From Chlamydiota bacterium (GTDB taxonomy: Bacteria; Auribacterota; JACPWU01), in the NCBI GenBank assembly GCA_016196885.1, contig JACPWU010000050.1, positions 38,794 through 70,793 on the forward strand: DNA of 32,000 nucleotides, given 5' to 3'. Of the stretch, positions 1,347-27,913 are shown piece after piece. The position numbers were made by a program, and so were the translations under genes. Every line of letters starts with the position of its first letter. Position 1 is the first letter of the stretch. The notes under the pieces were generated by a model. The model saw only the letters and a program-made list of their open reading frames with translations. It did no database searches and was not told where the DNA came from.

Positions 1347-1686
1347 AATAATCTTTCGAGATCATCGTAGAGGACGAAAGTTCTCCCCATCATGCTTTTT
1401 TTGTAGTCGCCCGATTTATCCCCCCACCCAATCCAGCTGTTATCTTTAGCACGTTCGTAAGCTTATGACCCGTGCATTGATCGCTAAACAATCCCGCCAC
1501 CTTGGATAGATTGGGTGGGGGGATGAATCGGGCAGCCCCATAAATGGGGCGACTACAAAGAGTCCAAAATCCAAAAATCAAAATGCAAAATGACAATTCA
1601 AAAATTAAATTTTTTCAACGCAACAATATTAGAAACATTTTGGATTTTGGTATGTCATTTTGATGTTTGATGTTTGGATTTTTAAT
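1347..1686. repeat. Composite structured intergenic repeat, copy A (mraY/murD spacer)
   Basis: It shares long identical blocks with 7557-7856: ATCTTTCGAGATCATCGT, a 40-nt block GAAAGTTCTCCCCATCATGCTTTTTTTGTAGTCGCCCGAT, and a 28-nt block GGCAGCCCCATAAATGGGGCGACTACAA. An AT-rich heptamer hairpin follows at 1563-1686. Confidence 0.8.
1418..1524. mobile_element. 107-bp MITE-like element with perfect 16-bp terminal inverted repeats, nested in composite repeat copy A
   Basis: ATCCCCCCACCCAATC at 1418-1433 is the exact reverse complement of GATTGGGTGGGGGGAT at 1509-1524. The homologous position in copy B (7621-7634, CCCGATTCATCGGG) lacks the segment. Confidence 0.7.
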
Positions 1687-2784
1687 TTATCTTAATTTCA
1701 GCACCCCCAAACTCAACAATGCAAAAATCGCCGCCAAAATCCAAAATCGAATCGTCACCTTTGTCTCAGGCCAACCCTTCACCTCAAAATGATGATGGAG
1801 AGGGGCCATCTTAAAAATCCTTTTTCTTCGCAATTTAAAAGAGCCCACCTGGAGCATCACGGAAAGGGCCTCGATCACAAAAACACCTCCCACAATGAAA
1901 AGCATCATCTCTTGTTTAGAAAGAAGCGCAACCACACCCAAGCTCCCGCCCAAGGCCAAAGACCCTGTATCCCCCATAAAAACTTGAGCAGGATAAGCAT
2001 TATACCAAAGAAACCCCAGACCCGCCCCTACGAGGCTAGCGCAAAAAACGGTCAATTCTCCAACCCCTGCGACCGGTTGAAGTTGAAGGTAGGTCGCAAA
2101 TTTGACATTGCCGACGAGATAAGTCAATGCCGAAAAAACCAGGGCAGAAACCGTCACACACCCAATCGCCAAACCATCCAAACCATCCGTCAAATTCACC
2201 GCATTCGACGATCCGACAAAAACACTCAATAAAAATATAAGATAAAAAAATCCCAAATCGAAAGTCCAGTTTTTAAGAAAAGGAAGACTCACATGACTAA
2301 AAAAGGGTTGCAGATGATGTTCATGCCTCATGAAGAGCCAAAGAACAACAGCCAAGAGAATTTGCACCACAAATTTTGTCTTGGCCCTCACACCTAAAGA
2401 CCTTTTATTTTTCAATTTTAAATAATCATCCCAAGCCCCCAAAAACCCAAGACCCGTCACACAAAAGACAGTGATCCACACAAAATGATTGGTTAGATCA
2501 GACCAAAGAAAAACGGAAATTAAAATTGCGAGGAGAATCAAAGCCCCGCCCATGGTGGGCGTTCCTTCTTTACTGCGATGAAGGGCAAAAAGAGGCGGGC
2601 ATTCTTCTTTGCGAATGTTCTGGCCTACTTTGAGAGAATACAATTTTCGAATGAGCCACGGGCCCAAAAAGAGGGTCATCGCAAAAGCTGTCACAGCTGC
2701 AAAGGCCGCCCGGAAGGTGATGTAACGGAAGACGTTAAAGGGGGAAAAAATTTCTCTTAAAGGATATAACAAATGATACAGCAT
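1687..2784 (-). CDS. mraY: Phospho-N-acetylmuramoyl-pentapeptide transferase MraY
   Basis: 365-aa polytopic membrane ORF with MLYHLLYPL...FNVFRYITFRA at the N-terminus, the NAVNLTDGLDGLA motif and the PLHHHFE motif. dcw context. Confidence 0.95.
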   Translation of the reverse strand: MLYHLLYPLREIFSPFNVFRYITFRAAFAAVTAFAMTLFLGPWLIRKLYSLKVGQNIRKEECPPLFALHRSKEGTPTMGGALILLAILISVFLWSDLTNHFVWITVFCVTGLGFLGAWDDYLKLKNKRSLGVRAKTKFVVQILLAVVLWLFMRHEHHLQPFFSHVSLPFLKNWTFDLGFFYLIFLLSVFVGSSNAVNLTDGLDGLAIGCVTVSALVFSALTYLVGNVKFATYLQLQPVAGVGELTVFCASLVGAGLGFLWYNAYPAQVFMGDTGSLALGGSLGVVALLSKQEMMLFIVGGVFVIEALSVMLQVGSFKLRRKRIFKMAPLHHHFEVKGWPETKVTIRFWILAAIFALLSLGVLKLR

Positions 2785-2794
2785 GAAACCTCAA

Positions 2795-4246
2795 TCAAAC
2801 GGGGTGGGTCGCAGGTAATATTTCTTTACGATAATGATGCTGACCCTGAAGTTGGACGACCAAGGCTCGGACGATCCCTTCCATCCCCATGGCCCTGGAT
2901 CCCTTTACCAACACGGCATCTGAATCTCCTAAAATACTCAAATGATGTAAAACCTCTTCATGGCTCTCACACATCACACTGGCCGATTTTGGAAAACCCT
3001 TTTTTCTTACTTCTTCAACCATTAAACTCGACAAAGGCCCCATGCTGATCACAATATCTACCTGTGCCTTTAAAACCTCTGTGGCCAAAGCCCGATGCCA
3101 ATGGGCCTCATCCTCTCCCAAATCCAACATATCGGCGCAAACAAAAATTTTCTTTCCAACAACTTTCATCGCCTTAAAAGTTTCCAGCGCGGCCGCCATA
3201 GATTGAGGATTGGCGTTATAGGCATCATTGACAATAGCAACGCCGCCCACGCGGGTTACATCCCATCGCATGGAAGGCAACTTCAATTGCGAAGCCTTCT
3301 CAAACATCTCATACCAAGGCACTCCCAGGACATGCCCTATGCACAAAGCCCCTAAAACATTATAAACATGATGAAGCCCGATAAATGGAATTTTCATCAT
3401 GCCCAATTCTTTCCCTTCAAAAATCAATGAGAACCGTGTGGCATATCCTTTGAGAAGCTCAATTTTCGAGGCCCTCAACTGCCCCCCTTCATAAATCCCA
3501 AAAGAGAAAAGAGGCCCTTGATAGGTCTTGGCCTTTTTCCGAAGGAGAGAATCATCCTCATTGTAAATTCCAACCCCTCCATTCAACCCCGCGATCAAAT
3601 TCCATTTTTCCTCAAGAACGCCTTCTAAGCCCTTGAGCATTTTCAAATGGGAGGGTCCTACATTTAAAACCACACCCACTGTTGGGGACGCTATAGAAAC
3701 AAGTTTTTCAATCTCTCCCGGGCCGCTTGTTCCCATTTCGACAGAGCAGGTCCGATGCGCGGCTCGAAACTTTAAAAGAGTGAGAGGAACCCCCAAATGA
3801 TTGTTCAAGGTCCCTTCATTTTTAAGATTGGGACCCAAGGGCTCGAGCATGACCGCCGTCATTTCTTTCACCGTTGTTTTTCCGCAAGAGCCTGTAATCC
3901 CAATCACAGGAATCGAAAAGAGACACCGATAGTGACTGGCCAACCTCTGAACCGTTTCAAGTCCATCCTCCACATAACCCACTGCGATTTCGCCTCGACG
4001 AAGCAAGTCCATAGAAGCTCCATCCAGCAGACGACTCATCAAAACACCCTTGGCCCCTTTTGAAACGGCTTCTCGGACAAAATCATTTCCATCAAATTTA
4101 GGGCCCTTCAAGGCAATAAAAAGATCCCCGGCATTTATTTTTCTCGAATCTGTCGAAACCCCTTCAAAAGGGGTAAAAGAGCGCCCAAAAACATGACGGG
4201 CACTTGTATAATTCAAAACTTGTTCAAATGTCAGAAAATCACTCAT
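2795..4246 (-). CDS. murF: UDP-N-acetylmuramoyl-tripeptide--D-alanyl-D-alanine ligase MurF
   Basis: STDSRKINAGDLFIALKG, GITGSCGKTT P-loop and DAYNANP motifs. Located between murE and mraY. Confidence 0.9.
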   Translation of the reverse strand: MSDFLTFEQVLNYTSARHVFGRSFTPFEGVSTDSRKINAGDLFIALKGPKFDGNDFVREAVSKGAKGVLMSRLLDGASMDLLRRGEIAVGYVEDGLETVQRLASHYRCLFSIPVIGITGSCGKTTVKEMTAVMLEPLGPNLKNEGTLNNHLGVPLTLLKFRAAHRTCSVEMGTSGPGEIEKLVSIASPTVGVVLNVGPSHLKMLKGLEGVLEEKWNLIAGLNGGVGIYNEDDSLLRKKAKTYQGPLFSFGIYEGGQLRASKIELLKGYATRFSLIFEGKELGMMKIPFIGLHHVYNVLGALCIGHVLGVPWYEMFEKASQLKLPSMRWDVTRVGGVAIVNDAYNANPQSMAAALETFKAMKVVGKKIFVCADMLDLGEDEAHWHRALATEVLKAQVDIVISMGPLSSLMVEEVRKKGFPKSASVMCESHEEVLHHLSILGDSDAVLVKGSRAMGMEGIVRALVVQLQGQHHYRKEILPATHPV

Positions 4247-4256: not shown

Positions 4257-5738
4257 TCATTCCTGAAGACTGTACGCTACACGCTGTACGCTTTCTTTTA
4301 CCACAGCCACATCATCAAAGGGAATTTGAAAAGCACCGATTTGCTGAAATTTTTCATGCCCCTTTCCTGCAACCAAAACCACATCCCCACGTCTAGCCAA
4401 ATCGAGTGCCCTGTCAATCGCTGTGCGACGATCCGAAATCTTTTCAAAGGGAATTTTTTCCTCTGCCACACCCGCCTCAATTTCGCAAATAATCTTCTCA
4501 GGATCTTCGCTCCGTGGATTGTCCGAAGTGATAATGACAAAATCCGAAAAATGGGCGGCCGAGCACCCCATTTTAGGACGCTTCGAGCGATCTCGATCGC
4601 CCCCACATCCAAAGAGAGTGATCAAGCGCCCCTTCACCAAGGGTCTCAATGTTTCCAAAACATTACGAAGGGCCTCTTCGGTATGCGCGTAATCTACGAT
4701 CACCTGAAAGGGGGCATCCAGAGAAACAAATTCCATTCGGCCGGGAACATTCTTAAAATTTTCCAAACCTTCCTTGATTTTTTCTGGATACATTCCCAAT
4801 ACCCACCCAACTGCAAAGGCAGCCAGGGCATTGTAAACATTAAACCGCCCAATCAAAGGAAGTCTTAACGAAAGACTCCCATTCGGAAACACCACCTCAA
4901 AAGAACTCCCCCCCATATCGGATTCAAGATGACGAGCCTGAATCATGGCCCCTTGAGAAAGTCCATAGCTGATGAGTCGAGCCTTTGACAACGCCTCCAC
5001 CCTTGCACCCCAAGGATCGTCATGATTCACCACTGCGAAACCCTCTGGACTTAATAAATCTCTAAACAAAATCGCCTTGGCGGAAAAATAATTCTCTAAA
5101 TTTTGATGATAATCCAAATGATCCTGAGAAAGATTCGTGAAAACGGCAACATCAAAGGAAATACCGTCCAGCCGCCCTTGCCCAAGGGCATGGCTAGAGG
5201 CTTCTAGCACCACCGATTGAGAACCCTGATCTAACATGTCACGAAAATATTTTTGCAAGTCGAGTGACTCGGGCGTCGTTCTCTCAGCAGGGATCAAACG
5301 CCTTCCCATCTTGTAATAAACCGTTCCTAAAAGACCCGGATGATCCCCTCTTCCCCGTAGAAGAGATTCAATCAAAAAACTCACCGTCGTCTTCCCATTG
5401 GTCCCGGTCACTCCCACCACAGTTAAACCCTCAGCCGGATTTTCATAAAAGGCACAGGCCAACTGGGCCATGGCACGTCTGGCATCCTTCACCACAAAAC
5501 AAGAAACATTTTTAAATCTTATATTTTCATCTTCCACACACAACGCCACCGCACCGCGAGATACGGCATCCTCCGCGAAATCCTTCCCATCCCTCTTCTC
5601 GCCGCGCCAAGCGATAAAAAGATGCCCCGGCTCCACTTTTCTGGAATCGAAACTAATCCCGCTGATGAGAACATGCGGATCTCCGTGGAAGGATAAAATT
5701 TCAAGACCTTTGATTAAAGAAGACAATGATATATGCAT
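4257..5738 (-). CDS. murE: UDP-N-acetylmuramoyl-L-alanyl-D-glutamate--2,6-diaminopimelate ligase MurE
   Basis: FDSRKVEPGHLFIAWRG, GVTGTNGKTT and DNPRSEDP (the DNPR motif typical of mDAP-adding enzymes). The track ORF starts at 5804, but its first 22 codons are a translated heptamer repeat. ATG 5738 (MHISLSSLIKG) is the more likely start. Confidence 0.9.
   Translation of the reverse strand: MHISLSSLIKGLEILSFHGDPHVLISGISFDSRKVEPGHLFIAWRGEKRDGKDFAEDAVSRGAVALCVEDENIRFKNVSCFVVKDARRAMAQLACAFYENPAEGLTVVGVTGTNGKTTVSFLIESLLRGRGDHPGLLGTVYYKMGRRLIPAERTTPESLDLQKYFRDMLDQGSQSVVLEASSHALGQGRLDGISFDVAVFTNLSQDHLDYHQNLENYFSAKAILFRDLLSPEGFAVVNHDDPWGARVEALSKARLISYGLSQGAMIQARHLESDMGGSSFEVVFPNGSLSLRLPLIGRFNVYNALAAFAVGWVLGMYPEKIKEGLENFKNVPGRMEFVSLDAPFQVIVDYAHTEEALRNVLETLRPLVKGRLITLFGCGGDRDRSKRPKMGCSAAHFSDFVIITSDNPRSEDPEKIICEIEAGVAEEKIPFEKISDRRTAIDRALDLARRGDVVLVAGKGHEKFQQIGAFQIPFDDVAVVKESVQRVAYSLQE
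4270..4291. repeat. Single arm of the CGTACAG/CGTTCAG heptamer repeat family, inside the murE 3' end
   Basis: CTGTACGCTACACGCTGTACGC encodes the last residues (QRVAYS) of MurE. It is the same word family as 9350-9426, 10029-10122 and 21117-21146. Confidence 0.6.
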
Positions 5739-5743
5739 AAAAT

Positions 5744-5814
5744 TCCCAATACCAAATTTCCAATGACAATTTAATTTCCAATGATCCAATCTCCAATTGG
5801 ACATTTGTCATTGG
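5744..5814. repeat. CCAATGA/CCAATTGGACATT heptamer-hairpin repeat (ftsI/murE spacer)
   Basis: CCAATGACAA ... TTGTCATTGG forms a 10-bp stem around the palindrome TCCAATTGGA. It shares the core with 8310-8420 and 11529-11645. It overlaps the ftsI stop codon. Confidence 0.7.
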
Positions 5815-7529: not shown

Positions 7530-7556
7530 AATGAATCTCCTTAAAATATCAATTTT

Positions 7557-7856
7557 AATGATCTTTCGAGATCATCGTGTGCGATGAAAGTTCTCCCCAT
7601 CATGCTTTTTTTGTAGTCGCCCGATTCATCGGGCAATCCGTGTGCACGGCAGCCCCATAAATGGGGCGACTACAAGGGCGATTTTCATCCTCCTTTGTGC
7701 CGACCTCAGTCGGCATGAATGTTTCATAGCAAAAATCAAAATGCAAAATTCAAAATGACAAATTAAAATTTAAAACAATCATGCAAGACTGAGAGTCAAT
7801 ATATTTTGATTTTTAATACGTCATTTTGATATTTAATTTTTAATTTTTGATTTTTT
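7557..7856. repeat. Composite structured intergenic repeat, copy B (ftsL/ftsI spacer)
   Basis: Same conserved blocks as copy A. The outer stem GTAGTCGCC/GGCGACTAC encloses three short hairpins (CCGA-TTCA-TCGG, CCGT-GTGC-ACGG, CCCCA-TAAA-TGGGG). There is an extra hairpin TGCCGAC-CTCA-GTCGGCA, and an AT-rich heptamer hairpin at 7731-7856. Confidence 0.8.
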
Positions 7857-8288
7857 CTAATCCATTCCCTTCCCTGCCACGCTTAGCAAAGACGCCGAAT
7901 CCAGACTCTCTTTCCCCCAATCAGAACTCATTAAATCATCTTCGTAAAACACAGGTTCCTCATGAAGCTTCACCACTTTCAACACATCTGACATCGCCAA
8001 ACCCAATCCCTCTTCCTCCGCCTTTATCATGATACGACTGGGCATTTTTAACGCCGAGAGATCCGTTTCCAAAGTTCTCTCATGCTTAGAAAGCTCTAAC
8101 GCCATTCTTTCCTTTTCCTTAATTTGATACCCCATCCGAACCACCTGCACGTTTTGCCACACGTAAAAAAGTGCCAAGAAAATTCCAAAAACCAAACAAA
8201 GAAAAGTTCTCACCACCACACTCCATCGCGTGACTCCGGCCTGTCTTCGTCTCGCCTTCAAATAGGCTTGACTGTAATAACGTCTCAT
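7857..8288 (-). CDS. ftsL: FtsL-like cell division protein (single TM plus coiled coil)
   Basis: Sits between rsmH and ftsI. It has one hydrophobic helix (VVVRTFLCLVFGIFLALFYVW) followed by a heptad-like segment. ATG 8288 has AAGGGGGTGA 5-7 nt upstream, and the longer track start at 8330 runs through the repeat. Sequence alone is weakly diagnostic. Confidence 0.6.
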   Translation of the reverse strand: MRRYYSQAYLKARRRQAGVTRWSVVVRTFLCLVFGIFLALFYVWQNVQVVRMGYQIKEKERMALELSKHERTLETDLSALKMPSRIMIKAEEEGLGLAMSDVLKVVKLHEEPVFYEDDLMSSDWGKESLDSASLLSVAGKGMD

Positions 8289-8309
8289 GAAAATCACCCC
8301 CTTTTTTTT

Positions 8310-8420
8310 ATGACCAATGACCCATTTCAAATGTCAAATGAATGGACAATGACCCGATGTTCAATTGGACATTGACTCATTGGAAATTCATTTGTTATTG
8401 GTCATTGGTCATTTGAAATT
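8310..8420. repeat. CCAATGA/TTGGTCA heptamer-hairpin repeat (rsmH/ftsL spacer)
   Basis: ATGACCAATGACCCATTTCAAATGTCAAATGAATGG pairs with CATTCATTTGTTATTGGTCATTGGTCAT. 7-nt periodicity is visible throughout. CAATTGGACATT core. Confidence 0.75.
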
Positions 8421-9330
8421 ATATTTTCTCTATCGCCCTTAACCTGGCACTCCTCGCTCTTCGATTCTCACGCACCTCTTCTGGAGAAGGTCTCAGAGGT
8501 TTACGCGTTAAAATTTTAACCACCCCAGACCCTCCAGATTCATCCCCCCCTTTGACAGAACAGCCTCTAAAAAACCGTTTCACCAAACCGTCCTCTAAAG
8601 AATGAAAAGAAATAACGACCCATCGTCCGCCTGACCTCAAGGCACGAAGCGCCTGAGGCAACACCTCTTCCAAGGCTCCCATCTCATCATTCACATAAAT
8701 TCTTAAGGCTTGAAAAACTCTCGTCGCCGGGTGAATTTTTTGATTTTGATAACGCCGTCCGATTGTTTTCTCAACCAGGTCAGCCAATTGAAAGGAATTC
8801 TGCAAAGGAAGTTGTCTTCGGGATTGAACAATGGCTCTTGCGATTTTGCGGGCATAACGCTCTTCGCCCAGATCAAAAAAAATTCGGCTCAGCTCCTCTT
8901 CACTTGAATCGCGCAACACTTCTCGAGCTGTACATCCCTTGGAAACATCCATTCTCATATCCAAAGGTCCCGAATTGGAAAAACTAAAACCACGCTCAAC
9001 ATCTTCTAATTGATAAGAGGAAAAGCCTAAATCCATCAGGATTGCGTCCACCTGACTTACTTGAAGAGATTTCAAATGGCTTTCTAAATTTCTAAAATTG
9101 CCATGAACCCATCGAATGTCATCATTGAAATCTCTCAAATTTTCCTTCGCAACTTCCAAGGTACGCTCGTCTTGATCCATAGCGATCAAACTCCCCCCTG
9201 GCAAAATTCCTTTTAAAATCTCCCTCGAATGACCTCCCAAACCAACGGTTGCATCCACCACGGTGCTTCCTGGCTTTAAATTCAGAAACTCCAATGCTTC
9301 TCTTAGAAAAACACTAACGTGCGTAAACAA
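8419..9330 (-). CDS. rsmH: 16S rRNA (cytosine1402-N4)-methyltransferase RsmH
   Basis: HVSVFLREALEFL..VVDATVGLGGHS and the DLGFSSYQLE motif. Apparent TTG start at 9330. Second gene of the dcw cluster. Confidence 0.9.
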   Translation of the reverse strand: MFTHVSVFLREALEFLNLKPGSTVVDATVGLGGHSREILKGILPGGSLIAMDQDERTLEVAKENLRDFNDDIRWVHGNFRNLESHLKSLQVSQVDAILMDLGFSSYQLEDVERGFSFSNSGPLDMRMDVSKGCTAREVLRDSSEEELSRIFFDLGEERYARKIARAIVQSRRQLPLQNSFQLADLVEKTIGRRYQNQKIHPATRVFQALRIYVNDEMGALEEVLPQALRALRSGGRWVVISFHSLEDGLVKRFFRGCSVKGGDESGGSGVVKILTRKPLRPSPEEVRENRRARSARLRAIEKI

Positions 9331-9349
9331 TGTTCAAACTCTTTTTAAA

Positions 9350-9426
9350 GCGTACAGCGTTCAGCGGACAGCGGACAGTTTGAAGGAACTTATTTTTCTG
9401 TCCGCTGTACGCTGAACGATGTACGC
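9350..9426. repeat. CGTACAG/CGTTCAG heptamer hairpin (mraZ/rsmH spacer)
   Basis: GCGTACAGCGTTCAGCGGACAGCGGACAG pairs with CTGTCCGCTGTACGCTGAACGATGTACGC around a ~19-nt loop. Confidence 0.75.
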
Positions 9427-9436
9427 CGAACGGTCC

Positions 9437-9886: not shown

Positions 9887-9958
9887 TTGCGGGTCCTTTT
9901 TATCTTATTAAACGCCTTTACCAGCCCCTGTTCCCGCTTCCCCTAAAGAAGAATATAT

Positions 9959-10021: not shown

Positions 10022-10028
10022 CGAAAAT

Positions 10029-10561: not shown

Positions 10562-10567
10562 ATTTTT

Positions 10568-19369: not shown

Positions 19370-21109
19370 TTACATTTTCTTAAGCGTTGCAATTTCTTTC
19401 TGAAGTCCTTGCAGCTCAACTAAAATAACGCCGATTTGAGCTGAATTCTTCCCTGATTCTTCAAGCCTTTTTAATTCCTGAGTCAAATTCAGACATTTTT
19501 TATCGTAAGTCCTTAATTTAAAGGTAGTTATATAATCAGAAAGAACTTTTTCTGGATTCTGGAAAGAAAATTTTTCCACCAGAAGACTGCTCAGAATACC
19601 TTGAAATCGAGGATCAGACAGCAAAGAATCGGCACCTTTATTCTCTAACATATTCTGAAGCAATAACTTATAATCTTCAAATTCAAAATCCTCTGGTTTA
19701 ACTTCTCCCCTGACCTTCTCAAAAAGCCTTGAGTCCGACAAAATAAGCTTCAAAAGCCCCTTTTCTAAAGCACAGGGTCCTGGCAATTGGGAAGGATCCT
19801 TTTCTCCAGAACGAAACTCTGACCTCGCTGGCTTGATACCCTTTATTTCTTCCCGCAAAGACTGTTCAGAAATCTTTAGCCTTTGACTTAAAAGCTGAAG
19901 ATAATGATCTTGAAGCACCGCATTTTTAATGCGACTCAGGATCGGCAAAATTTCTCGTGCGATTTTCAGTTTTGAAACCTCATCCTGTGAGGGATGACGA
20001 TTCATGAGAATACCGATTTTAAAATCAATCATGGAGGGAGACTCCTGAATCAGCTTTAGGAAAGCCTCTTTTCCGTTTTTTCGAATCCACGTATCCGGAT
20101 CATCCCCTTCAGGAATCTGTGCAATTTTGACAATCATGTCCTGACCGAGAAAAACTTCTAAGGCCCGAAGAGAGGCCTCGACCCCTGCCCTGTCTCCGTC
20201 GTAAGCAACCACAACGCCTTGGGCAAAGCGCCGTAAGATTCGGACATGATTTTCATTGAAGGCGGTTCCGAGGGAGGCCACCACATTTTCAACACCTGCC
20301 TCATACACATGGATCATGTCCATGTAGCCTTCGACCAAAATCACCCGAGACTCTTGAAGAATGGCCCTTTTGGCCAAATGAAGGCCGTAGAGCAATTGGC
20401 TTTTATTGAATAACGGGGTTTCGGGAGAATTTAAATACTTGGGCATCTGGTCCCCCAGCGCACGGCCTCCAAAGCCCACAACTCTGGCCTGGGCATCCAT
20501 GATGGGGAACATAATCCTTCCTTTGAAGCGGAGATTTTTTCCGCCCCCACCTGGGCCTGTCACACCCACGCGCTCCAAGAGTTTTTCCTCGAGCCCCAAT
20601 CGCTGAAATTCTTTCAGCACCTCCGTCTCCCTCAAAGGGCAATAACCCATTCGAAAGGTTTCAACCATTTTTTTATTCACCCCTCTTGCCTTAAGATAAT
20701 TCCTCGCCTCAGCGGCCTCTTCTGTGAAGAGGGATCTCTGAAAAAAGTGGGCCACCTTTTCTGCAACGTCAAAGAGCTGTTTCTTTTGAAATTCTCCCGA
20801 TCCCTCCTTTACTTTTGAGATGACCACACCCGCCTTTTCTGCCAGGATTTCCACAGCCTCAGGGAAACCGATGTTCTCATATTTCATCAAGAAGCTAAAA
20901 ACATTGCCTCCCGCTCCACAACCGAAGCAGTGAAAAATCCCCTTCTCAGGATTCACCATAAAGGAAGGCGTTTTCTCAGGATGAAAAGGGCACAAGGCCT
21001 TGTAATTGCGCCCAGCCCCTTTGAGCGGCACATATTGTGCAATCAACTGCACAATATCCACCTTGAGCTGGATCTGGGAAAGTGTACTTTCAGGAATTAA
21101 TTCAGACAT
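19370..21109 (-). CDS. dnaG: DNA primase DnaG
   Basis: CPFHPEKTPSFMVNPEKGIFHCFGCGAGGN zinc finger and a Toprim segment VILVEGYMD. ATG 21109 (MSELIPE) fits the family N-terminus. The track start at 21163 reads through a repeat arm. Confidence 0.9.
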   Translation of the reverse strand: MSELIPESTLSQIQLKVDIVQLIAQYVPLKGAGRNYKALCPFHPEKTPSFMVNPEKGIFHCFGCGAGGNVFSFLMKYENIGFPEAVEILAEKAGVVISKVKEGSGEFQKKQLFDVAEKVAHFFQRSLFTEEAAEARNYLKARGVNKKMVETFRMGYCPLRETEVLKEFQRLGLEEKLLERVGVTGPGGGGKNLRFKGRIMFPIMDAQARVVGFGGRALGDQMPKYLNSPETPLFNKSQLLYGLHLAKRAILQESRVILVEGYMDMIHVYEAGVENVVASLGTAFNENHVRILRRFAQGVVVAYDGDRAGVEASLRALEVFLGQDMIVKIAQIPEGDDPDTWIRKNGKEAFLKLIQESPSMIDFKIGILMNRHPSQDEVSKLKIAREILPILSRIKNAVLQDHYLQLLSQRLKISEQSLREEIKGIKPARSEFRSGEKDPSQLPGPCALEKGLLKLILSDSRLFEKVRGEVKPEDFEFEDYKLLLQNMLENKGADSLLSDPRFQGILSSLLVEKFSFQNPEKVLSDYITTFKLRTYDKKCLNLTQELKRLEESGKNSAQIGVILVELQGLQKEIATLKKM

Positions 21110-21116
21110 AGGAAAT

Positions 21117-21146
21117 AGCGTACAGCGTATAGCGTTCAGCGGACAG
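21117..21146. repeat. Single arm of the CGTACAG/CGTTCAG heptamer family (cvpA/dnaG spacer)
   Basis: AGCGTACAGCGTATAGCGTTCAGCGGACAG. No complementary arm is nearby. Confidence 0.6.
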
Positions 21147-21174
21147 AAAAAATCCATCCTCATTGAAACTGTTC

Positions 21175-21738
21175 TTACTGAGGTTCATCAACAACTTCAC
21201 TTACTTTTTCCAATCCTTCTTGGACCTCTTCTTGGGTCTCCAACAATTCTTTTGGCTGGATCTTCTGATCTAGCCATTGATGAATCTCATCCATCTTCTG
21301 AGTGGAGTAAGAGCCAATCACGGACTCTTGAAAGGGTCCTTGGAAAGTTTTTGGATAAAATGTCAGCAAGGCCAGACCCAAAACAGCTGATAAAAGAATG
21401 GCTCTCGTTCCTCCGAAAAGCGAGCCCCCCACTTTATCAATGGGCGATTGAAAAATCATATGGGAAATTTTCTGAACGATTTTTGCAAGAAGAAAAGAGG
21501 CCAGAATCCCAATGAACACAATTCCCCAAAGAGAGACAGGATTGGAAAGATTGATCCCCAACGGAAGCTTGCTGGAAATCAGGGTCCCGACTGAAGATCC
21601 CATCACCAGCGCAAAGACAATGGCCCCCAAAATCCCGCCTGTCAATACCACCTCCGCCAAAATGCCCCGACGCACTCCGACATAAAAGCCCCGGACCGCC
21701 AAGGCCATCATCGCAATGTCTATCCAATTGAATTTCAT
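21175..21738 (-). CDS. cvpA: CvpA-family membrane protein
   Basis: MKFNWIDIAMMALAVRGFYVGVRRGILAEV and four hydrophobic segments, typical of colicin V production protein family members. ATG 21738 is preferred over the TTG at 21753. Confidence 0.7.
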   Translation of the reverse strand: MKFNWIDIAMMALAVRGFYVGVRRGILAEVVLTGGILGAIVFALVMGSSVGTLISSKLPLGINLSNPVSLWGIVFIGILASFLLAKIVQKISHMIFQSPIDKVGGSLFGGTRAILLSAVLGLALLTFYPKTFQGPFQESVIGSYSTQKMDEIHQWLDQKIQPKELLETQEEVQEGLEKVSEVVDEPQ

Positions 21739-21772
21739 AGGTGCATTATACAATAAATTGGATATTTCACCA

Positions 21773-22906
21773 TTATTTCAACCACGGAAGTTGGCAAAAT
21801 TTCATAAAGGGTGTTATTCTTGCCCTATATTTTGCAATTTCGATATCCTTTGTTCCCAAATGAACTTGATAAAATTTTGGAACCGAAGAACGTTCGGAAA
21901 AATAAGATATATGAGGGCTTAGAGAGGATTCACCTGTCTTACATTCAACCGCAAAAAGAGGCTTACGATTTTTGATCACGACAAAATCAATTTCCCTTTT
22001 TTGGGCATCACGAATAAACTGAAGATCCATTTCATCTCCTTCGGTATCTTCAATAAAATGACACATTTTGAGCAAATGGGATGCCACAAGGTTTTCAAAT
22101 CGGGTGCTCAGGTCTTCACATTGGGACCAATCCCACAGGTAAAGTTTTTTCTCCTTTTTTGCCGTGCGCAATCGAGGGAGCCCAAAGGGAGCTATTCGAT
22201 AACAATAATAAATATTTTCTAGGATAAGAATCCAACGGTCCACTGTTTCAAAAGAGACTTGTAAATCTTGTTTCAAATTATTGAGTGAGAGAATGGACCC
22301 CACACGTTCAGGGAGAATATGAATGAGGAGATCCAATTGTGAAACCTCTTTAACTTGTTCCAAGCTTATCAAATCTTCTTGAATCACACGCATCAGGCGC
22401 TCCCTCTGCCATCTTTTATGGTGACGAGTGTTCGCCTTTAAAAAGGGTTCTGGGAAACCTCCGAAGGTCAGCAGTTGATCTAGACATTTTTGATTTGGCT
22501 TCGAATCAAGCTCGGAAAGACTTAAAGGATGTAAACGATAATAGTGATATCTGCCCTGCAAAGAATCTCCTCCACGACGGTAGTAATCGAGTCTGGCTGA
22601 GCCTGTGATGAGAAACCGTTTCGTAGATTTGTGCTGATCGTAGAAACCTTTCACGAGATTTCGCCACCCCCTGTATTTGTGAATTTCATCCAGGACAATT
22701 AATTTTTGATCCGCAGGCAATTCCCCTTTAAGAAGAGACCTTTTGACAGTCGGCACATCCCAGTTGAGGTAGGCAGGATGGGATTCATTGGCATTTCCCA
22801 AAAGATGAAAAGCCACCGTGGTCTTACCTGTTTGCCGAGGGCCACCGATAAAAACCATTTTTTCATTTAAATCTTTTTCAATCGCTGACTCGAGGTAACG
22901 CTGCAT
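21773..22906 (-). CDS. Stand-alone AAA+ ATPase with C-terminal PD-(D/E)xK-like domain (AAA_14 + DUF4143 / COG1373-like)
   Basis: Walker A GGPRQTGKTT and Walker B LIVLDEIH. The C-terminal REIDFVVIKNRKPLFAVECKTGE resembles a restriction-endonuclease-fold motif. Confidence 0.7.
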   Translation of the reverse strand: MQRYLESAIEKDLNEKMVFIGGPRQTGKTTVAFHLLGNANESHPAYLNWDVPTVKRSLLKGELPADQKLIVLDEIHKYRGWRNLVKGFYDQHKSTKRFLITGSARLDYYRRGGDSLQGRYHYYRLHPLSLSELDSKPNQKCLDQLLTFGGFPEPFLKANTRHHKRWQRERLMRVIQEDLISLEQVKEVSQLDLLIHILPERVGSILSLNNLKQDLQVSFETVDRWILILENIYYCYRIAPFGLPRLRTAKKEKKLYLWDWSQCEDLSTRFENLVASHLLKMCHFIEDTEGDEMDLQFIRDAQKREIDFVVIKNRKPLFAVECKTGESSLSPHISYFSERSSVPKFYQVHLGTKDIEIAKYRARITPFMKFCQLPWLK

Positions 22907-22924
22907 AAAAACCCCTGTAAATGA

Positions 22925-22977
22925 TCATGAATAAATTAGACTATATCTTATTTTATACATGAATAAATTAGAGTCAA
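22925..22977 (-). promoter_or_regulatory. Putative promoter of the ATPase gene with two 15-nt direct repeats (candidate operator)
   Basis: Minus strand: TTGACT (22977-22972), 16-nt spacer, TAAAAT (22955-22950). The direct repeat TCTAATTTATTCATG occurs once across the spacer (22957-22973) and once about 10-25 nt downstream of the -10 (22925-22941). Confidence 0.45.
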
Positions 22978-23029
22978 CTAGAAAATAGTTAAGATGGTTT
23001 TGATGGGCTTTAGAAGGCATGAGAGAAGC

Positions 23030-23755
23030 TTACCGAGACAAGTAAAAATTTAAAACAGCCAAACTCGCAAGAGCAGCTGTTTCTACACGCAGCACCAGCG
23101 ATCCCAGACTGACGCATTTCCACTCCCGATCCAAAGCCCCTTGAATTTCTTGAGGTGAAAAATCCCCTTCTGGGCCAATGGCAATGATCACTTTTTTTGC
23201 ATCCGGATAAGATTTGAAGATTTCGTGAAAATCATAACGAGGAGTTCCACCCAAAGAAGCAATTAAACGAAGGTCTGCATCATAAACTGTTTCTAAAAAA
23301 GAAGCCCAAGATTGAGGCTCATGAATTTTGGGAATTTTAACACGTCCGCATTGTTCGGATGCGGAAATGGCAATTCTTTCCCAACGGTCTTTGCAAAAAG
23401 TTTTTTTAACGACGCGATTTGTCAAAAGAGGAAAAATTTCGTCCACTCCCAGTTCTGTCGCTTTTTCAACCAACCAGTCCATTCTCTGGGATTTGGGAAT
23501 GGCTTGGGCTAAAACCATTTTCCATGTTTTTTGGGGGGTGTCCTTTTTTTCAAGAACCTTTGCGGAAATAATGTTTCGAGAAACTTTTTCGAATCGAGCT
23601 AAATACTCACTAGACTGCGGCGTAAAAAATAAAATCTCTTCTCCCTCTTTCATTCTCAACACATGAATCAAATGATGGGAGACTTGCGTGTCTAATTCGA
23701 ACACATCTCCTACCTCAAGATTTTTTTCGATGTAGATTCGGGGAAGGGTGGACAT
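23030..23755 (-). CDS. rsmE: 16S rRNA (uracil1498-N3)-methyltransferase RsmE
   Basis: MSTLPRIYIE..., IAIGPEGDFSPQEI and LGSLVLRVETAALASLAV (SPOUT knot motifs). The track start at 23869 reads through a hairpin repeat. ATG 23755 is preferred. Confidence 0.85.
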   Translation of the reverse strand: MSTLPRIYIEKNLEVGDVFELDTQVSHHLIHVLRMKEGEEILFFTPQSSEYLARFEKVSRNIISAKVLEKKDTPQKTWKMVLAQAIPKSQRMDWLVEKATELGVDEIFPLLTNRVVKKTFCKDRWERIAISASEQCGRVKIPKIHEPQSWASFLETVYDADLRLIASLGGTPRYDFHEIFKSYPDAKKVIIAIGPEGDFSPQEIQGALDREWKCVSLGSLVLRVETAALASLAVLNFYLSR

Positions 23756-23763
23756 ATAAAAAT

Positions 23764-23845
23764 CAGTCGACAGTCCACGGTCCATAGTCCATGAGAGGCA
23801 AATAATTCCTTTAAAACTGTGGACTATCGACGATGGACCATGGAC
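23764..23845. repeat. GTCCATG-type heptamer hairpin (dnaJ/rsmE spacer)
   Basis: CAGTCGA CAGTCCA CGGTCCA TAGTCCA TGAG pairs with CTGTGGACTATCGACGATGGACCATGGAC. T-runs lie on both sides. It ends 9 nt before the rsmE ATG. Confidence 0.75.
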
Positions 23846-23887
23846 TTTTTTGTCTCCATGACTAAACATTTATTCATAACAAGAAGC

Positions 23888-25048
23888 TCAGAATTTGAAA
23901 AGCTTCTTCACTGTGTCTACAAAAGACTTATACATCGGAAGAGAATTAGGTTCTGGAATTTCTGAAAAACGTTTCAAAAGATTTTTTTGTTCTTCCGTCA
24001 GACGAACAGGAATTTCCACCATGACCCGCACCAATTGATCCCCATGGCCATATCCGCCTAAATCTTTAATCCCTTTTCCCTTCAGCCGAAAAATCTTATG
24101 GGTTTGAGTGCCAGGCGGGATTTTGAGCATGGCAGCCCCTTCAAGAGTGGGCACCTGAATTTCACCCCCTAAGGCTGCCATATAAAAAGGGACTGGAACT
24201 TCGCAAAGGACATCATTGCCTTCCCTTGTGAAAAATTCATCCTCTTCCACATGGATTAAAATGTAAAGGGAGCCGCTTCTTCCTCCCCTGACACCTCCAT
24301 TTCCTTCTCCGCTCATTTTGAGACGGGAACCTGTTTCTACGCCGGGGGGAACTTTGACAGAGACTTTTCGATGGGCTCTGGAACGCCCCTCTCCTCTGCA
24401 GTTCTTGCAAGGATGAGCGACAAATTGGCCGCGCCCACGGCAGCGAGGACAGGTTTGGCTGATGCTAAAAAAGCCCTGACTGCGATGAACTTGTCCAGAT
24501 CCATGACATTGGGGACAGGTCTCTCGATGCGACCCTATTTCTACCCCCTCCCCTTTGCAATCGGAACATTTCTCTAGATGTTCAAATGCTATTTCTTTCT
24601 TGCAGCCGAAAACGGCCTCGCGAAGGGGGAGCACCAACTCGTATTGCAAATCTTCACCGTCTTCTCCATGGCTTTCCCCTCTTTGACGCCGAGATCCAAA
24701 GCTGAAAAAATCATCAAAAATCCCGCCTCCTCCTCCCCGGCCAAATTCACCCATAAAGGTGCGAAGGGCCTCTTCCAAATCAATCCCAAAGCCTCCGCCA
24801 CCCCCTCCCGACGCACGCCCTGCTCCCACTCCGGCATGGCCAAAGCGGTCGTATTGAGCCCGCTTTTCTGAATCACTTAAAATTTCATAAGCCTCCGAGA
24901 TTTCTTTAAATTTTTCCTCGGCCGCTTTATCCCCTGGATTGCGATCGGGATGATATTTTAAGGCCAATTGGCGATAGGCCTTTTTAAGCTCATCAGGAGA
25001 GGCGCTTCGGTTAACACCCAAAAGTTCATAATAATCTTGTTTAGACAT
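23888..25048 (-). CDS. dnaJ: Molecular chaperone DnaJ
   Basis: J domain (DYYELLGV...HPDRNPGD), G/F-rich linker and four CxxCxGxG zinc-finger repeats. Confidence 0.95.
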
Positions 25049-25140
25049 AAATCATACCTTCTTTAAAATATGAATAGATGATTAAAGCTAAATTTAAATT
25101 TAAAAGCAAGGGATAAGGAACAATACCACCTTTTAACCCC

Positions 25141-25170
25141 TTGACTGCGAATCAGATAAAATGATATACT
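25141..25170 (+). promoter_or_regulatory. Putative sigma-70 promoter of the pseudopilin operon
   Basis: TTGACT (25141-25146), 18-nt spacer, TATACT (25165-25170), in the dnaJ-divergent spacer. Confidence 0.45.
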
Positions 25171-25287
25171 TTGAGGGTGAAAGAGGATCCCCTCTGAGAG
25201 GATGGTTTTATGCTGTTTTTTGATGATTCTCTCAATAGCGCCGGGGGGAAGCCGAACCTATTCTTCAGAGGAGGAATAGGTTTTTTT

Positions 25288-25875: not shown

Positions 25876-26602
25876 CAAAAAGAAAGCGATCAGAAAAAAA
25901 ATAACTCCCCCAAGCCCTAACTCCCCAGGCCCCTCTTTGAAAAAAAGAGGGGGGACCCTCCCTTTCAGTTTAATCCCACAGGGACTAGAAAATCTTGAGG
26001 GGAGTTGGAGGGGTTATGAGAGTGATCTATTTTCTTTTGAAACTTCTAAAAAAAAATCATCCGGGCTAACCCTGATCGAACTTTTGCTCGTCATTTCTAT
26101 CATGGGCCTTCTTGTTTTTTTAGCGCTCCCAACGCTTTCAAAGTTTGGAAGTAACATACGACTCAAAAGTGCATCAGAACAGGTATCCAGTCTCTTTCGG
26201 ATGGCTCGGCTCTTGGCTACCACAAAAAATATCACGACTTCTGTTTTTATTTACACCCGAGAGGCGGAGCTTCCTAATCATATTTTCATTACAGGTGCAG
26301 GAGGACAATTGGAAAAGGTTTGGGTGGCTCCCTCTTTGATTGAAATTCCGGATGTTTCAGGCAACATCGGTCTTCAAACCGCCTCCTTCACTTCTTTCGG
26401 AACCACGAGCGCCATCTCGCTTCATCTTATTCAAAAGGGCACACTCATCAATGGAAATCCTTATGATGCGAGCGGGACATACGGAAGCTTGAGCAAAGCC
26501 GAACGGGTCAAATGTCAAACCGTCACCACAGACAATAACACCGGCCGGGCCAGAGTTTACGCTTATGGGAGGAATGCGCCATGGGCAAGTACGGATCTTT
26601 AA
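25856..26602 (+). CDS. GspH/FimT-like minor pseudopilin with an unusually long (~70 aa) leader
   Basis: SSG/LTLIELLLVISIMGLLVFLALP, then SASEQVSSLFRMARLLA. There is no ATG/GTG/TTG in frame between the repeat and the cleavage motif. ATG 25856 has GGAGG at -5. The track start at 25748 lies deep inside the upstream gene. Confidence 0.65.
   Translation: MTLLIGDKKKAIRKKITPPSPNSPGPSLKKRGGTLPFSLIPQGLENLEGSWRGYESDLFSFETSKKKSSGLTLIELLLVISIMGLLVFLALPTLSKFGSNIRLKSASEQVSSLFRMARLLATTKNITTSVFIYTREAELPNHIFITGAGGQLEKVWVAPSLIEIPDVSGNIGLQTASFTSFGTTSAISLHLIQKGTLINGNPYDASGTYGSLSKAERVKCQTVTTDNNTGRARVYAYGRNAPWASTDL
25902..26016. mobile_element. 115-nt variant of the TAAC...GTTA palindromic element inside the GspH-like leader
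   Basis: The left end TAACTCCCCCAAGCCC and right end GAGGGGAGTTGGAGGGGTTA match the 72-nt element. The interior differs and has a CCCCTCTT-TGAAAAAA-AGAGGGG hairpin. Confidence 0.6.
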
Positions 26603-27114
26603 AAGCAGGGTCATGGATCATGGGTCATGGGTTAACAAAAAAAGAAAGTTTCATGTTTCATGTTTCATGTTTCATGTTACTCACAACTCACGACTCACGA
26701 CTCACGACTAAAAAAGGCTTTACCCTTTTCGAAATCGTCATCGCCTTAGGAATCCTGGCCATTGGTATCTTAGGAATTCTGGCGCTTTTTCCTGTGGGGC
26801 TGGATGCTCAAAAAAGGGCGATGGATTATGGCAACATGGCCAATTTGGCAGAATGGAAAATGGCTGACATTTATTATCGAAGCCATCTCTCAGGATTTGA
26901 TAACAGTTTGACCGCGGCTCTAGATTATCCAACCAGTGGACCGGATCCTGCGCCTTTCACACAAAATTCAAAATATTTATGGCATTATTCGGTTTCTCAA
27001 CCTTTTGTGAGCACCCTTCCTGATTTTTACCGCGTGGATTTAGAAATTTATTCGGTCGAAGATACGTCAAACTCCATCGAAAAGGTGGTGAATTATTTTG
27101 AAAAACCAAACTAA
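26581..27114 (+). CDS. GspI/PilV-like minor pseudopilin
   Basis: KKG/FTLFEIVIALGILAIGILGILALFPVGL. ATG 26581 is preceded by GGGAGGA at 8 nt. Internal in-frame ATGs at 26653 and 26674 lie inside a heptamer array. Confidence 0.7.
   Translation: MGKYGSLKAGSWIMGHGLTKKESFMFHVSCFMLLTTHDSRLTTKKGFTLFEIVIALGILAIGILGILALFPVGLDAQKRAMDYGNMANLAEWKMADIYYRSHLSGFDNSLTAALDYPTSGPDPAPFTQNSKYLWHYSVSQPFVSTLPDFYRVDLEIYSVEDTSNSIEKVVNYFEKPN
26608..26710. repeat. Three consecutive heptamer arrays inside the GspI-like leader
   Basis: GGGTCAT GGATCAT GGGTCAT, then GTTTCAT x4 perfect (26649-26676), then GTTACTC ACAACTC ACGACTC ACGACTC ACGACTA in the same 7-nt register. Confidence 0.85.
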
Positions 27115-27913
27115 AATAACTGTCGTGCGTCGTGGGCCATCTATCATCCATCATCCATCATCTACTCATGGCTTTTCCATGATCGAACTTCTCGCCGCTA
27201 TGTCTGTTTTTATCATCATGGCTTTTGCCCTGTATGTCGTTTTCGATCGCGTTAATCTCGTGTGGAAACATGGAGAGTACAAGGCAGATCAATATCAGAA
27301 TGCCCGAAATGTTTTGGACATGATGGCTCGAGAATTAACTTCCGCTGTGATTGCTGTCGGAGGACCTAATGCCTTTTCAAACAATGTTTATGGCCCTGCC
27401 TATTTATGGAGTGTTGATGGCCAGGGAGGAAGTGATTACGACCAAGATCAAATCTTTTTCATTTTTGCCAGGGACAACGCACTTCGTGAAGTAGGTTACT
27501 ACATCAACGACCAAACCACAGGTGTGGGAAACACAACGGCCGCAGATGATGTTTTGATGCGGGCCTACACCAGTGATACAAACACCGATTTTGACATCAC
27601 CTCGACTGGCACTTCTTTTGGTTCTTACGACGACACAGGTTTTAAAATCACGGATCTCAACTTTAATTTTATTTATCAGAACGGTGGCAATTATACCCGC
27701 ACCGATGTCTGGGACAGTCGAATGGATTATACCAGCGCTTCAAGCACTTCTACGACCGTTGATGATGGAAAATTGCCTGATTTTATCGAGATTTCGATTC
27801 GCGTCGTAGACCAAGAAATTTTGGAAAAAGATGGGATCTCTCCGCCTCAAAAAGATCGCAAGGAATTTAAAATCATGGTCCCGATGAATCAGAGGAGTTT
27901 TAGAAATGAATAG
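27098..27913 (+). CDS. GspJ/PulJ-like minor pseudopilin
   Basis: HG/FSMIELLAAMSVFIIMAFALYVVF, then QYQNARNVLDMMARELTSA. TTG start at 27098 with AAGGTGG upstream. Overlaps the previous stop by 17 nt. Confidence 0.7.
   Translation: MKNQTKITVVRRGPSIIHHPSSTHGFSMIELLAAMSVFIIMAFALYVVFDRVNLVWKHGEYKADQYQNARNVLDMMARELTSAVIAVGGPNAFSNNVYGPAYLWSVDGQGGSDYDQDQIFFIFARDNALREVGYYINDQTTGVGNTTAADDVLMRAYTSDTNTDFDITSTGTSFGSYDDTGFKITDLNFNFIYQNGGNYTRTDVWDSRMDYTSASSTSTTVDDGKLPDFIEISIRVVDQEILEKDGISPPQKDRKEFKIMVPMNQRSFRNE
27120..27170. repeat. Heptamer array inside the GspJ-like leader
   Basis: CTGTCGT GCGTCGT GGGCCAT CTATCAT CCATCAT CCATCAT CTACTCA, translated as TVVRRGPSIIHHPSSTH. Confidence 0.7.

Follow-up and report, generated by a model that had tools for sequence, protein, structure and literature searches.

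Why should the spacers between the housekeeping genes of a bacterium be occupied by arrays of seven-nucleotide units, and why should so many of these arrays stand beside their own complement? The question is raised by a 32 kb stretch of DNA (positions 38,794 to 70,793 of contig JACPWU010000050.1, assembly GCA_016196885.1), hereafter the window, whose positions are counted from its first letter. The elements that it carries are heptanucleotide arrays of the type known as short tandemly repeated repetitive sequences (STRR), arranged as inverted pairs, i.e., they are quasi-palindromic intergenic repeats of an already described kind. As to their role, we give a probability of roughly 55% to a reading, drawn from sequence comparison, in which the elements would originate at the DNA level and have consequences at the RNA level, the hairpin between rpoD and a tRNA-Met gene and probably a few others being maintained by selection. 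Most other copies are probably recent and weakly selected.

Judging from its proteins, the host is an uncultured lineage of the Planctomycetes-Verrucomicrobia-Chlamydiae (PVC) superphylum, represented by a groundwater metagenome-assembled genome (MAG) and nearest to Ca. Auribacterota. Exact matches to RsmH and RpoD come from an NCBI MAG labeled "Chlamydiae bacterium", and the closest named relatives of RpoD after that identical match are those of Ca. Theseobacter exili (66%) and of Ca. Aureabacteria/Auribacterota (61-63%). An earlier note on this DNA had concluded, from a division and cell wall (dcw) cluster led by mraZ and from a split gcvP, that the host is not a cyanobacterium; the gene map contains both features and the protein matches point the same way.

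Sequences compared and criteria

The gene map was built with Pfam, Rfam and ARAGORN, and open reading frames (ORFs) were cut back to the starts supported by orthologues, which left 20 spacers (minimum length 20 nt, 2733 nt in total). Tandem repeats were searched with Tandem Repeats Finder (TRF). A stringent tract was defined by at least 17 matches out of 21 at lag 7, and a partner by a complementary stretch at no more than 150 nt from the tract. The null for lag identity consisted of 300 dinucleotide shuffles, and the control set of 46 unrelated rsmH loci (744 kb). The 32 kb of the host genome were compared with about 33 kb of a sister MAG recovered from the same samples (GCA_016196915.1, contig JACPWT010000023, loci L050 and L056), which is syntenic across the entire window with protein identities of 60-86%. 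The other relatives were a third species (L049 and L059) and more distant genomes (L002, L055 and L003; L180 belongs to the same genome as L002).

A period of seven, confined to the spacers

In the 20 spacers the lag-7 identity is 0.380, against 0.267±0.009 in the shuffles (z 13.1), and the harmonics are visible at lags 14 (0.338) and 21 (0.319), while protein and RNA genes, with a lag-7 identity of 0.252, carry no signal. A scan for 35-nt segments with at least 80% self-identity returned lags 7 and 14 only, and of the 40 rows that TRF gave for the window, 24 have period 7 and another 6 have period 14; they lie at or near every position for which a 7-nt periodicity had been claimed before. Thirteen stringent tracts correspond to 4.1 per 10 kb, against 0.04 per 10 kb in the control loci, a gap of about 100-fold; no period other than 7 is enriched relative to that set. 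The tracts take up about 40% of the spacer bases in a region of essential cell-division and housekeeping genes, and at least eight unrelated word families coexist in these 32 kb.

Pairing is the second property of these tracts. A complementary partner exists for 10 of the 13 tracts in the window and for all 10 in the sister, compared with 9 of 175 in the control set, and 10 of the 16 regions that were folded give long hairpins of 25-45 bp (z -3.3 to -10.7). The earlier note had described nearly every spacer as a hairpin made of an array followed by the complementary array. The tracts are real, but their extent had been overstated, since 13 of the 20 spacers are occupied and others are free of tracts (16730-16798, 19322-19369, 22907-23029, 25049-25209 and 30912-30965). 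The paired architecture holds for the majority, with four single arrays or half elements (4270-4292, 5742-5807, 21117-21146 and 27138-27162), which have no partner and whose folding z is about 0.

Independent assemblies contain the same sequences. Three Logan contigs (L001, L053 and L054) match positions 7703-10069 at 100%, another (L057) matches 17484-24729 at 100%, and L058 matches 17510-20003 at 99.9%, its two mismatches both falling in a tRNA. Six tracts are thereby wholly covered, base for base, from runs SRR12113387, SRR12113416 and SRR12113417, so that the suspicion of an assembly without read support, which the earlier note had named as a possible refutation, does not apply to these six. 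At these six tracts the runs show no difference in unit copy number, the arrays in pilin genes lying outside this coverage. Tracts of the sister were reproduced in two runs. Some Logan contigs end inside tracts, as would be expected of sequence that recurs in the genome.

The hairpin between rpoD and tRNA-Met

The element that carries most of the argument is a TAGGGYA hairpin on the minus strand (17563-17650), which begins 6 nt past the rpoD stop and ends 7 nt ahead of the tRNA-Met gene, with a predicted energy of -59.2 kcal/mol and z -8.71. A heptamer hairpin occupies this same place in four genomes, those of the window, the sister (L056), the third species (L059) and the more distant L180, whose genome is otherwise poor in tracts; the RpoD proteins of these relatives are only 79-83% identical to that of the window.

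Between the window, L059 and L180 the hairpins can be aligned in register, each unit against its counterpart. For instance, the L180 units GTGGTAA GTGATAA GTCATAA stand opposite ..TTCAG GGCATAG GGTGTAG of the window. Every unit has changed at the same two positions (TAAGT to TAGGG), and complementary changes are found in every unit of the opposite arm. In the three-way consensus structure 90% of the cells are paired and 10 of the 24 pairs carry a change in each partner; as high a value was reached in 0 of 500 shuffles, and controls in which the alignment was slid gave at most 3. A run of five to eight U follows the hairpin in the three genomes (U6 in the window). As far as these alignments go, the rpoD-tRNA-Met hairpin is a case of repeat units that evolve in concert while the stem is preserved.

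Around this conserved position the picture is more variable. The density of period-7 tracts is 2.3-4.1 per 10 kb in the sister (L050 and L056), where all are paired and the words are mostly different, 0.8 in the third species, and 0 in the dcw loci of the more distant L002, L055 and L003. Window and sister share occupied positions after mraZ, between ftsL and ftsI, on both flanks of tRNA-Met and in the leader region of a pseudopilin gene, here called pp3. Between dnaJ and rsmE, in turn, the window has a hairpin and the sister none, its two genes abutting.

Composite copies, slippage and a recurrent loop

Two processes have left traces in these sequences. Perfect arrays, such as (AGCGTTC)6.3, (GTTTCAT)4.4 and (ACTCACG)4.4 in the TRF output, point to recent growth in steps of 7 nt, as replication slippage would give. 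Whole elements, on the other hand, recur in different spacers, so that slippage and element copying are both active. An ungapped alignment of 8314-8422 with 11538-11646 gives 80% identity over 109 nt, and the complete mraY-murD spacer (1341-1692) is a paralogue of the ftsI-ftsL spacer (7551-7858), with blocks 75-100% identical, among them an 80-nt block immediately upstream of the murD and ftsI starts that is 90% identical. The A-rich hairpin TCAAAATCCAAAAATCAAAATGCAAAATGAC is present twice in the window and twice in the sister, one sister copy being in the orthologous ftsL-ftsI spacer; a viral scan for its core gave no match. It follows that the proposal of slippage-generated DNA accounts for the perfect arrays, but that the tracts are largely copies of composite elements distributed between spacers. 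The repeats previously listed at 5744-5814 and 11529-11645 exemplify this: they are present, though of weak periodicity, and are better seen as copies of an element of about 110 nt.

In the hairpins, the arms are inverted copies of one another in which the order of the variant units is mirrored. Furthermore, a loop core AGTTT(N)AAGGA is shared by three hairpins whose arms are built from different words (9346-9432, 10029-10122 and 23764-23845) and is also present in the loop of the rpoD hairpin of the third species (L059). The window contains 4 matches to this core, 3 of them in loops, against 0.93 expected.

Altogether, these observations suggest a mechanism. Slippage by 7 nt would expand the arrays within each arm; template switching or conversion from arm to arm, together with homogenization of the units, would carry one variant through both arms. 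The word could in this way turn over completely while pairing is retained, of which the passage from TAAGT to TAGGG at the rpoD hairpin may be an example.

A proposed role in transcripts

The placement of the stems is compatible with a role in RNA. In 8 of 10 co-directional spacers the stem starts no more than 9 nt past the upstream stop codon or the end of an RNA gene, and it often ends 0-21 nt ahead of the next start codon. This proximity to the upstream stop and the co-directional operon setting argue that the elements would be co-transcribed, and they would then fold in the mRNA as stem-loops of 25-45 bp. By likeness to the repetitive extragenic palindromic (REP) sequences and bacterial interspersed mosaic elements (BIME), such intercistronic or terminal structures may act as partial terminators, as barriers to 3' exonucleases or as RNase III sites; in polycistronic transcripts they would serve as punctuation, and they would also flank the genes of tRNAs and RNase P RNA. 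Runs of U5-U8 follow the hairpins at 17563-17650, 17387-17476 and 23764-23845, as well as the rpoD hairpins of L059 and L180.

Several results weigh against this account. The folding energy shows no strand bias, the sense strand being favored in 11 of 20 hairpins (11 vs 9), and the G·U counts are likewise balanced. There is no excess of U on the sense strand after the outer stem (31 vs 36), in part because the flanking A and U runs pair together. A scan for consensus terminators found nothing special at the tracts, whose loops are larger than the limit of the scan. Several hairpins of the window are missing from the orthologous spacers of the sister, and the dcw clusters of L002 and L055 are free of them, differences from which most copies must be judged dispensable. 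Conversion from one arm to the other could, as a purely mechanical effect, give compensatory change in all units with no need of selection on RNA. Finally, the 32 kb of one genome and some 33 kb of its sister are a small extent.

These points lend weight to the rival that survives best, namely that the tracts are purely selfish or neutral DNA, slippage-prone quasi-palindromes that pile up where they do no harm, from a stop codon to the next start, and whose hairpin is kept solely by conversion between arms, with no role in RNA. The symmetry of folding and of U tails between strands is what this explanation would predict, and so are the variable presence at orthologous spacers of sister genomes and the existence of close relatives with few or no tracts. 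Half elements and single arrays also occur, one array enters the 3' end of murE and others lie in prepilin leaders that are cleaved off, and for the repeats of Xanthomonas no function has been found. It accounts less well for a hairpin that stays at a single position, between rpoD and tRNA-Met, in four species in spite of word turnover, for the U-run behind it in three of them, and for the occupation of the same spacers in window and sister (after mraZ, ftsL-ftsI and both flanks of tRNA-Met). We therefore consider neutrality a possible explanation of the whole set, though an unlikely one.

At the other extreme, the hairpins might be a general, fast-evolving form of transcript punctuation present in several phyla, with the loop core AGTTT(N)AAGGA recognized by a dedicated factor and with spread within and between co-occurring genomes. 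Slippage by 7 nt and arm conversion would then make and remodel terminator or processing stem-loops. The window organism and its sister do have an element and a habitat in common. So broad a claim seems to us rather improbable.

Other explanations

The dispersed copies could also be non-autonomous mobile elements, comparable to miniature inverted-repeat transposable elements or to REP doublets forming hairpins (REPINs), moved by a REP-associated tyrosine transposase (RAYT) or by an HUH transposase of the IS200/IS605 type encoded elsewhere, the arrays being secondary. Dispersed copies do retain the order of variant units and the loop core, one insertion is nested within another palindrome (1402-1558), and assembly graphs break at copies. 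Against mobility, no separate terminal inverted repeats and no target-site duplications were recognized by eye in the few copies of each family, arm length differs by whole units, and neither the 32 kb window nor the roughly 33 kb of sister contig contains a gene for a transposase. Mobility thus appears quite improbable.

Phase variation would require that a change of 7-nt copy number shift the reading frame, or alter how far promoter, ribosome-binding site and start stand apart. The number seven is not divisible by three, and two pseudopilin genes, pp3 and pp4, do have arrays in the 5' part that codes for the leader, the sister orthologue of pp3 having a leader array of another word; a switch might concern these two genes only. 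The proposal is very doubtful even so. Most tracts separate housekeeping genes (dcw, gcv, rpoD), and copy number is constant in the three runs for the six covered tracts, among which the pilin arrays are not counted. In pp3, moreover, each of the three frames finds an ATG in (GTTTCAT)4 and both arrays are free of stops in every frame (26648-26709), so slippage would not turn the gene off.

A further proposal, put forward for the TAACTGA repeats of Beggiatoaceae and carried over here, holds that the arrays bind a single-strand heptamer-binding protein (of the cold-shock, S1 or CsrA-like kind) that would control translation initiation. Several tracts end 0-9 nt ahead of starts that have no Shine-Dalgarno sequence (murE, lipB, rsmE and dnaG), and the same placement is reported for another heptamer system, in which CspB binds one heptamer per protein (MacGregor 2015, PMC4679880). 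Nevertheless, at least eight unrelated words coexist in 32 kb, with others in the sister, which no single sequence specificity fits; most arrays are partnered and would be double-stranded; and other hairpins precede a normal GGGGG ribosome-binding site. Such binding is, in our opinion, very improbable indeed.

That the tracts are artefacts of assembly or binning, as short-read contigs ending within them might suggest, is practically negligible given six exact tracts in independent assemblies of three runs, sister tracts recovered from two runs, and flanking genes that are intact and syntenic.

Two other candidates were rejected on structure. Clustered regularly interspaced short palindromic repeats (CRISPR) are incompatible with contiguous units without unique spacers, and heptad operators of the type bound by Streptomyces antibiotic regulatory proteins (SARP) or OmpR with contiguous units that have no 11-nt phasing. 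None of the tracts belongs to an Rfam family, and in the search of the window only rnpB and the tRNAs reach the gathering score; sub-threshold hits at 1-1700 in an E-value search are chance matches to miRNA models.

The individual tracts and their neighbors

The mraY-murD spacer holds the first A-rich hairpin (CAAAATS/TCAAAAW, 1563-1686), which starts about 4 nt past the mraY stop and is detected by TRF (-30.7 kcal/mol, z -4.17). It is a paralogue of the hairpin at 7731-7856 and of the two sister copies. The latter hairpin, also found by TRF (z -3.65), lies immediately past the ftsL stop as the distal part of a composite spacer of about 330 nt, and recurs in the ftsL-ftsI spacer of the sister (L050 11336-11440). 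The composite spacers contain other palindromes as well. One of 65 nt, TTGTAGTCGCCC...GGGGCGACTACAA, is found at 7612-7676 and at 1402-1558, the second copy harboring the nested palindrome of about 100 nt, CCCCCCACCCAATC...GATTGGGTGGGGGG; the 65-nt palindrome of these two sites was not found in the relatives that were fetched.

A different, 85-nt palindromic element, CCCCTCCAACTCCCC...GGGGTTGGGGGAGTTA, is inserted in frame within coding sequence, in murD (445-545), in the pseudopilin gene pp2 (about 25940-26016) and in a gspK-like gene (about 27950-28010), and resembles the Rickettsia palindromic elements. In MurD the insertion amounts to 29-39 aa (TPPTPLNIRGEQPSPYLRGVGGV) that the L049 orthologue does not have, and a near-identical peptide is located close to the N-terminus of the gspK-like product.

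The CCAATGA family has two complete hairpins. One, CCAATGA/TTGGTCA, lies in the rsmH-ftsL spacer (8310-8418; -39.9 kcal/mol, z -4.72), is contained in three Logan assemblies and is followed by a GGGGG run resembling a Shine-Dalgarno sequence ahead of ftsL; the other fills the gcvPB-lipB spacer (11529-11646; -42.8 kcal/mol, z -3.94). A half element reaching from the left arm to the apex, CCAATTGG, fills the ftsI-murE spacer (5742-5807). It has no fold of its own (z -0.14) and matches 8308-8373 and 11532-11597 at 71-77% over 66 nt.

A further group of arrays begins around mraZ. The mraZ-rsmH spacer carries a GCGKWCA hairpin with the loop AGTTTGAAGGA (9346-9432; -49.5 kcal/mol, z -9.04), and the sister hairpin at this position shares with it the inner stem GCGGA/TCCGC and a similar loop. 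On the other side of mraZ, (AGCGTTC)6.3 and (ACGCTGA)2.7 form a hairpin with the loop AGTTTAAAGGA (10029-10122; TRF score 81, z -6.45 and -5.92 on the two strands), placed between the mraZ promoter with its MraZ boxes and the RNase P RNA gene rnpB (10171-10563, plus strand; Rfam RF00010, 188.5 bits), from which it is separated by 49 nt upstream of the gene. The promoter scan gave a good mraZ promoter. On the minus strand at 9950-10021, downstream of a promoter-like TTGACA-17-TAAACT, three GTGGTG boxes spaced by 10 nt are likely a MraZ operator, and such boxes are also found in the sister (L050 9044-9075) and in L055. rnpB is divergent from mraZ, and 4 nt separate its end from the stop of an ORF that converges on it; this ORF, for a membrane-like protein of 113 aa, is conserved in the sister.

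Two members of this group have no partner. A lone array of 3.3 CTGTACG units found by TRF (4270-4292, z -0.28), of the same family as 9403-9426 and 10098-10121, encodes the final 12 codons of murE, and a lone GCGTWCA array with a loop of the family type, also in the TRF output, abuts the start of dnaG as a half element (21117-21146, z -0.20). The latter is 76% identical to 10043-10093 and has a related loop within 21110-21174.

Tracts adjoin rnpB and two tRNA genes, a fact that had escaped the first description. The tRNA-Val gene (16799-16872, minus strand) has upstream of it a weak GCATCGT/AACGACT tract (16882-16940; TRF 16917-16936, z only -2.14), situated between an ORF of 171 aa and the tRNA. 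In the sister, the 3' end of tRNA-Val together with an AAGTTAA array is duplicated about 245 nt apart (L050 100-160 vs 345-412, equal to L056 12805-13117), which looks like an integration scar at the tRNA.

The tRNA-Met gene (17483-17555, minus strand) has paralogous heptamer hairpins on both flanks, as in the sister. The one just downstream, TAGGGTA/CCCTAWA (17387-17476; -56.3 kcal/mol, z -10.65), is a paralogue of the rpoD hairpin and is followed by U5 on the minus strand. In the two hairpins (17387-17650) GGG recurs every 7 nt on each strand in four to five runs, which might allow a G-quadruplex to form in competition with the hairpin, and the 3' arm of one could pair with the 5' arm of the other across the tRNA. 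A tRNA-Met variant in L058 (about 2440-2494, aligned with 17510-17555 of the window) differs by a compensatory pair change in the anticodon stem and probably represents another copy of tRNA-Met that the assembly graph has joined on.

A GTCCATG/TGGACYA hairpin with the loop AGTTTTAAAGGA occupies the dnaJ-rsmE spacer (23764-23845, z -3.27). The gene of an AAA_14/DUF4143 ATPase (21773-22906) is present in the window and missing from the syntenic sister contig, and the spacer beside it contains a two-copy direct repeat, CATGAATAAATTAGA (22925-22975), without heptamers.

Downstream, between pp2 and the prepilin motif of pp3, TRF finds three abutting arrays on the plus strand, (GGGTCAT)3.6, (GTTTCAT)4.4 and (ACTCACG)4.4 (26608-26709, z -3.36), the last two within the leader-coding part of pp3, whose N_methyl motif spans ORF residues 44-67. 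A lone array of 3.6 CATCCAT units, again a TRF row (27138-27162, plus strand, z 0.0), is inside the leader-coding part of pp4 (N_methyl residues 23-46). False N-terminal extensions had been suspected where tracts are read through as coding sequence, and murE, lipB, rsmE, dnaG, the 171-aa ORF, ftsL and pp3 are indeed longer as called than their sister orthologues.

Comparison with known systems

The likeness to REP and BIME sequences lies in imperfect palindromes scattered through operon spacers and copied within a genome. REP and BIME are co-transcribed and are thought to stabilize mRNA 3' ends or to act as weak terminators. REPs measure 20-40 nt, have no internal tandem structure of 7 nt and are tied to RAYT, whereas no RAYT was seen in the stretches of window and sister. 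The REPINs share the palindromic, dispersed character (PMC3116915).

The closest described relatives are the GGGAATC repeats of Xanthomonas (Rehm et al. 2015, PMC4692102), of which 186 patterns are known, with 70 convergent inverted pairs; 89-93% are intergenic, they lie nearer to the upstream ORF, and they are mostly transcribed and without known function. Both systems have tandem 7-nt units (typically about four per array in Xanthomonas), an intergenic bias (about 90% in Xanthomonas, mostly between co-directional genes) with the shorter distance to the upstream ORF, pairs of arrays on opposite strands able to form a stem-loop or cruciform (about three quarters in Xanthomonas), and the same gene neighbors in related species with variable length and sequence. 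They differ in vocabulary, since Xanthomonas uses one G-rich word, GGGANTN, whose capacity to form quadruplexes has been studied, whereas at least eight families are present here and only TAGGGTA is rich in G runs, the others having none. The density also differs, about 4 per 10 kb here compared with 186 in a genome of roughly 5 Mb. Composite copies with conserved loops and compensated word turnover are, moreover, documented for the elements described here.

Among cyanobacteria, the STRR units listed by Mazel et al. in 1990 reportedly comprise CCCCA(A/G)T, TT(G/T)GTCA and CAACAGT, and the TTGGTCA repeat is presumably the one called STRR2 in that work. Of these words, those of the TTGGTCA class occur doubled in the window, those of the CAACAGT class do so in the sister, and CCCCAGT is absent. 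As with STRR and the heptamers of Nostoc 7120, TTCAAAA and GAC(C/T)AAT x8 (bioRxiv 10.1101/2022.06.06.494920), several word families occur together, here within the 32 kb and likewise within about 33 kb of the sister, intergenic and often abutting start codons, and the A-rich units of the window resemble TTCAAAA. The doubled TTGGTCA of the window (8398-8411), given by the earlier note as identical to an STRR unit, is a cyclic permutation of the reverse complement of GAC(C/T)AAT. The host, in contrast, belongs to the PVC group and is not a heterocystous cyanobacterium, and inverted pairing is the rule here, while few pairs are reported in Nostoc. Exact overlap with about ten known words amounts to 3 matches among some 24, where about 0.2 would be expected if words were equiprobable, which they are not.

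TAACTGA repeats, in turn, have been described in marine Beggiatoaceae, some Cyanobacteria and Bacteroidetes as direct arrays of 2-6 units (MacGregor 2015, PMC4679880). They resemble ours as short intergenic heptamer arrays a few nucleotides from starts without a canonical ribosome-binding site and in their patchy phylogenetic spread, but theirs is a system of a single word in direct repeats, with one inverted case in 170, as against mostly inverted pairs here. Window, sister and third species contain no doubled unit of the TAACTGA class. As cited in PMC4679880, Mrázek et al. (2007) identified heptamers as the commonest class of long simple sequence repeats and suggested slippage related to the polymerase.

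The architecture reaches further than these systems. A metagenome scan for (AGCGTTC)3.5 returned at least 120 stretches, with a G+C of 0.36-0.72 and 1.9 additional period-7 tracts per 10 kb among the matches listed, at least 29 loci having three tracts or more; complementary partners were found for 57 of 152 tracts in the first 80 of these loci. A planctomycetotal contig (L080) has paired arrays of several words. Another (L090, JGI Ga0209066_10000983; G+C 0.48) is denser than the window, with about 20 abutting arrays of many words at 2769-3130 and 12654-14555 and the pair (GCGTAGG)4/(CCCTACG)8. Paired arrays of many words in many metagenome loci thus argue that the architecture is widespread and under-described, and not unique to this MAG. 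Among the matches listed, window and metagenome loci have, query word aside, only one related word in common, and the heptamer words appear to be mostly lineage-specific.

In the literature searched, no paper connects heptamer repeats to PVC phyla, to which STRR-like repeats are now extended. From a practical perspective, such tracts break short-read assemblies and produce false N-terminal extensions in gene calls. What stands out in the window is the extreme density, the composite copies and the clean, concerted compensatory turnover. The rpoD hairpin in particular is a natural case of change through a whole array and both of its arms, and could help to explain how arrays and hairpins evolve together and why the unit is of 7 nt. 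Paired heptamer arrays are already known from Xanthomonas, and arrays of many words from cyanobacteria and metagenomes; the elements described here, being of a kind already on record, are an instructive case and not a new system.

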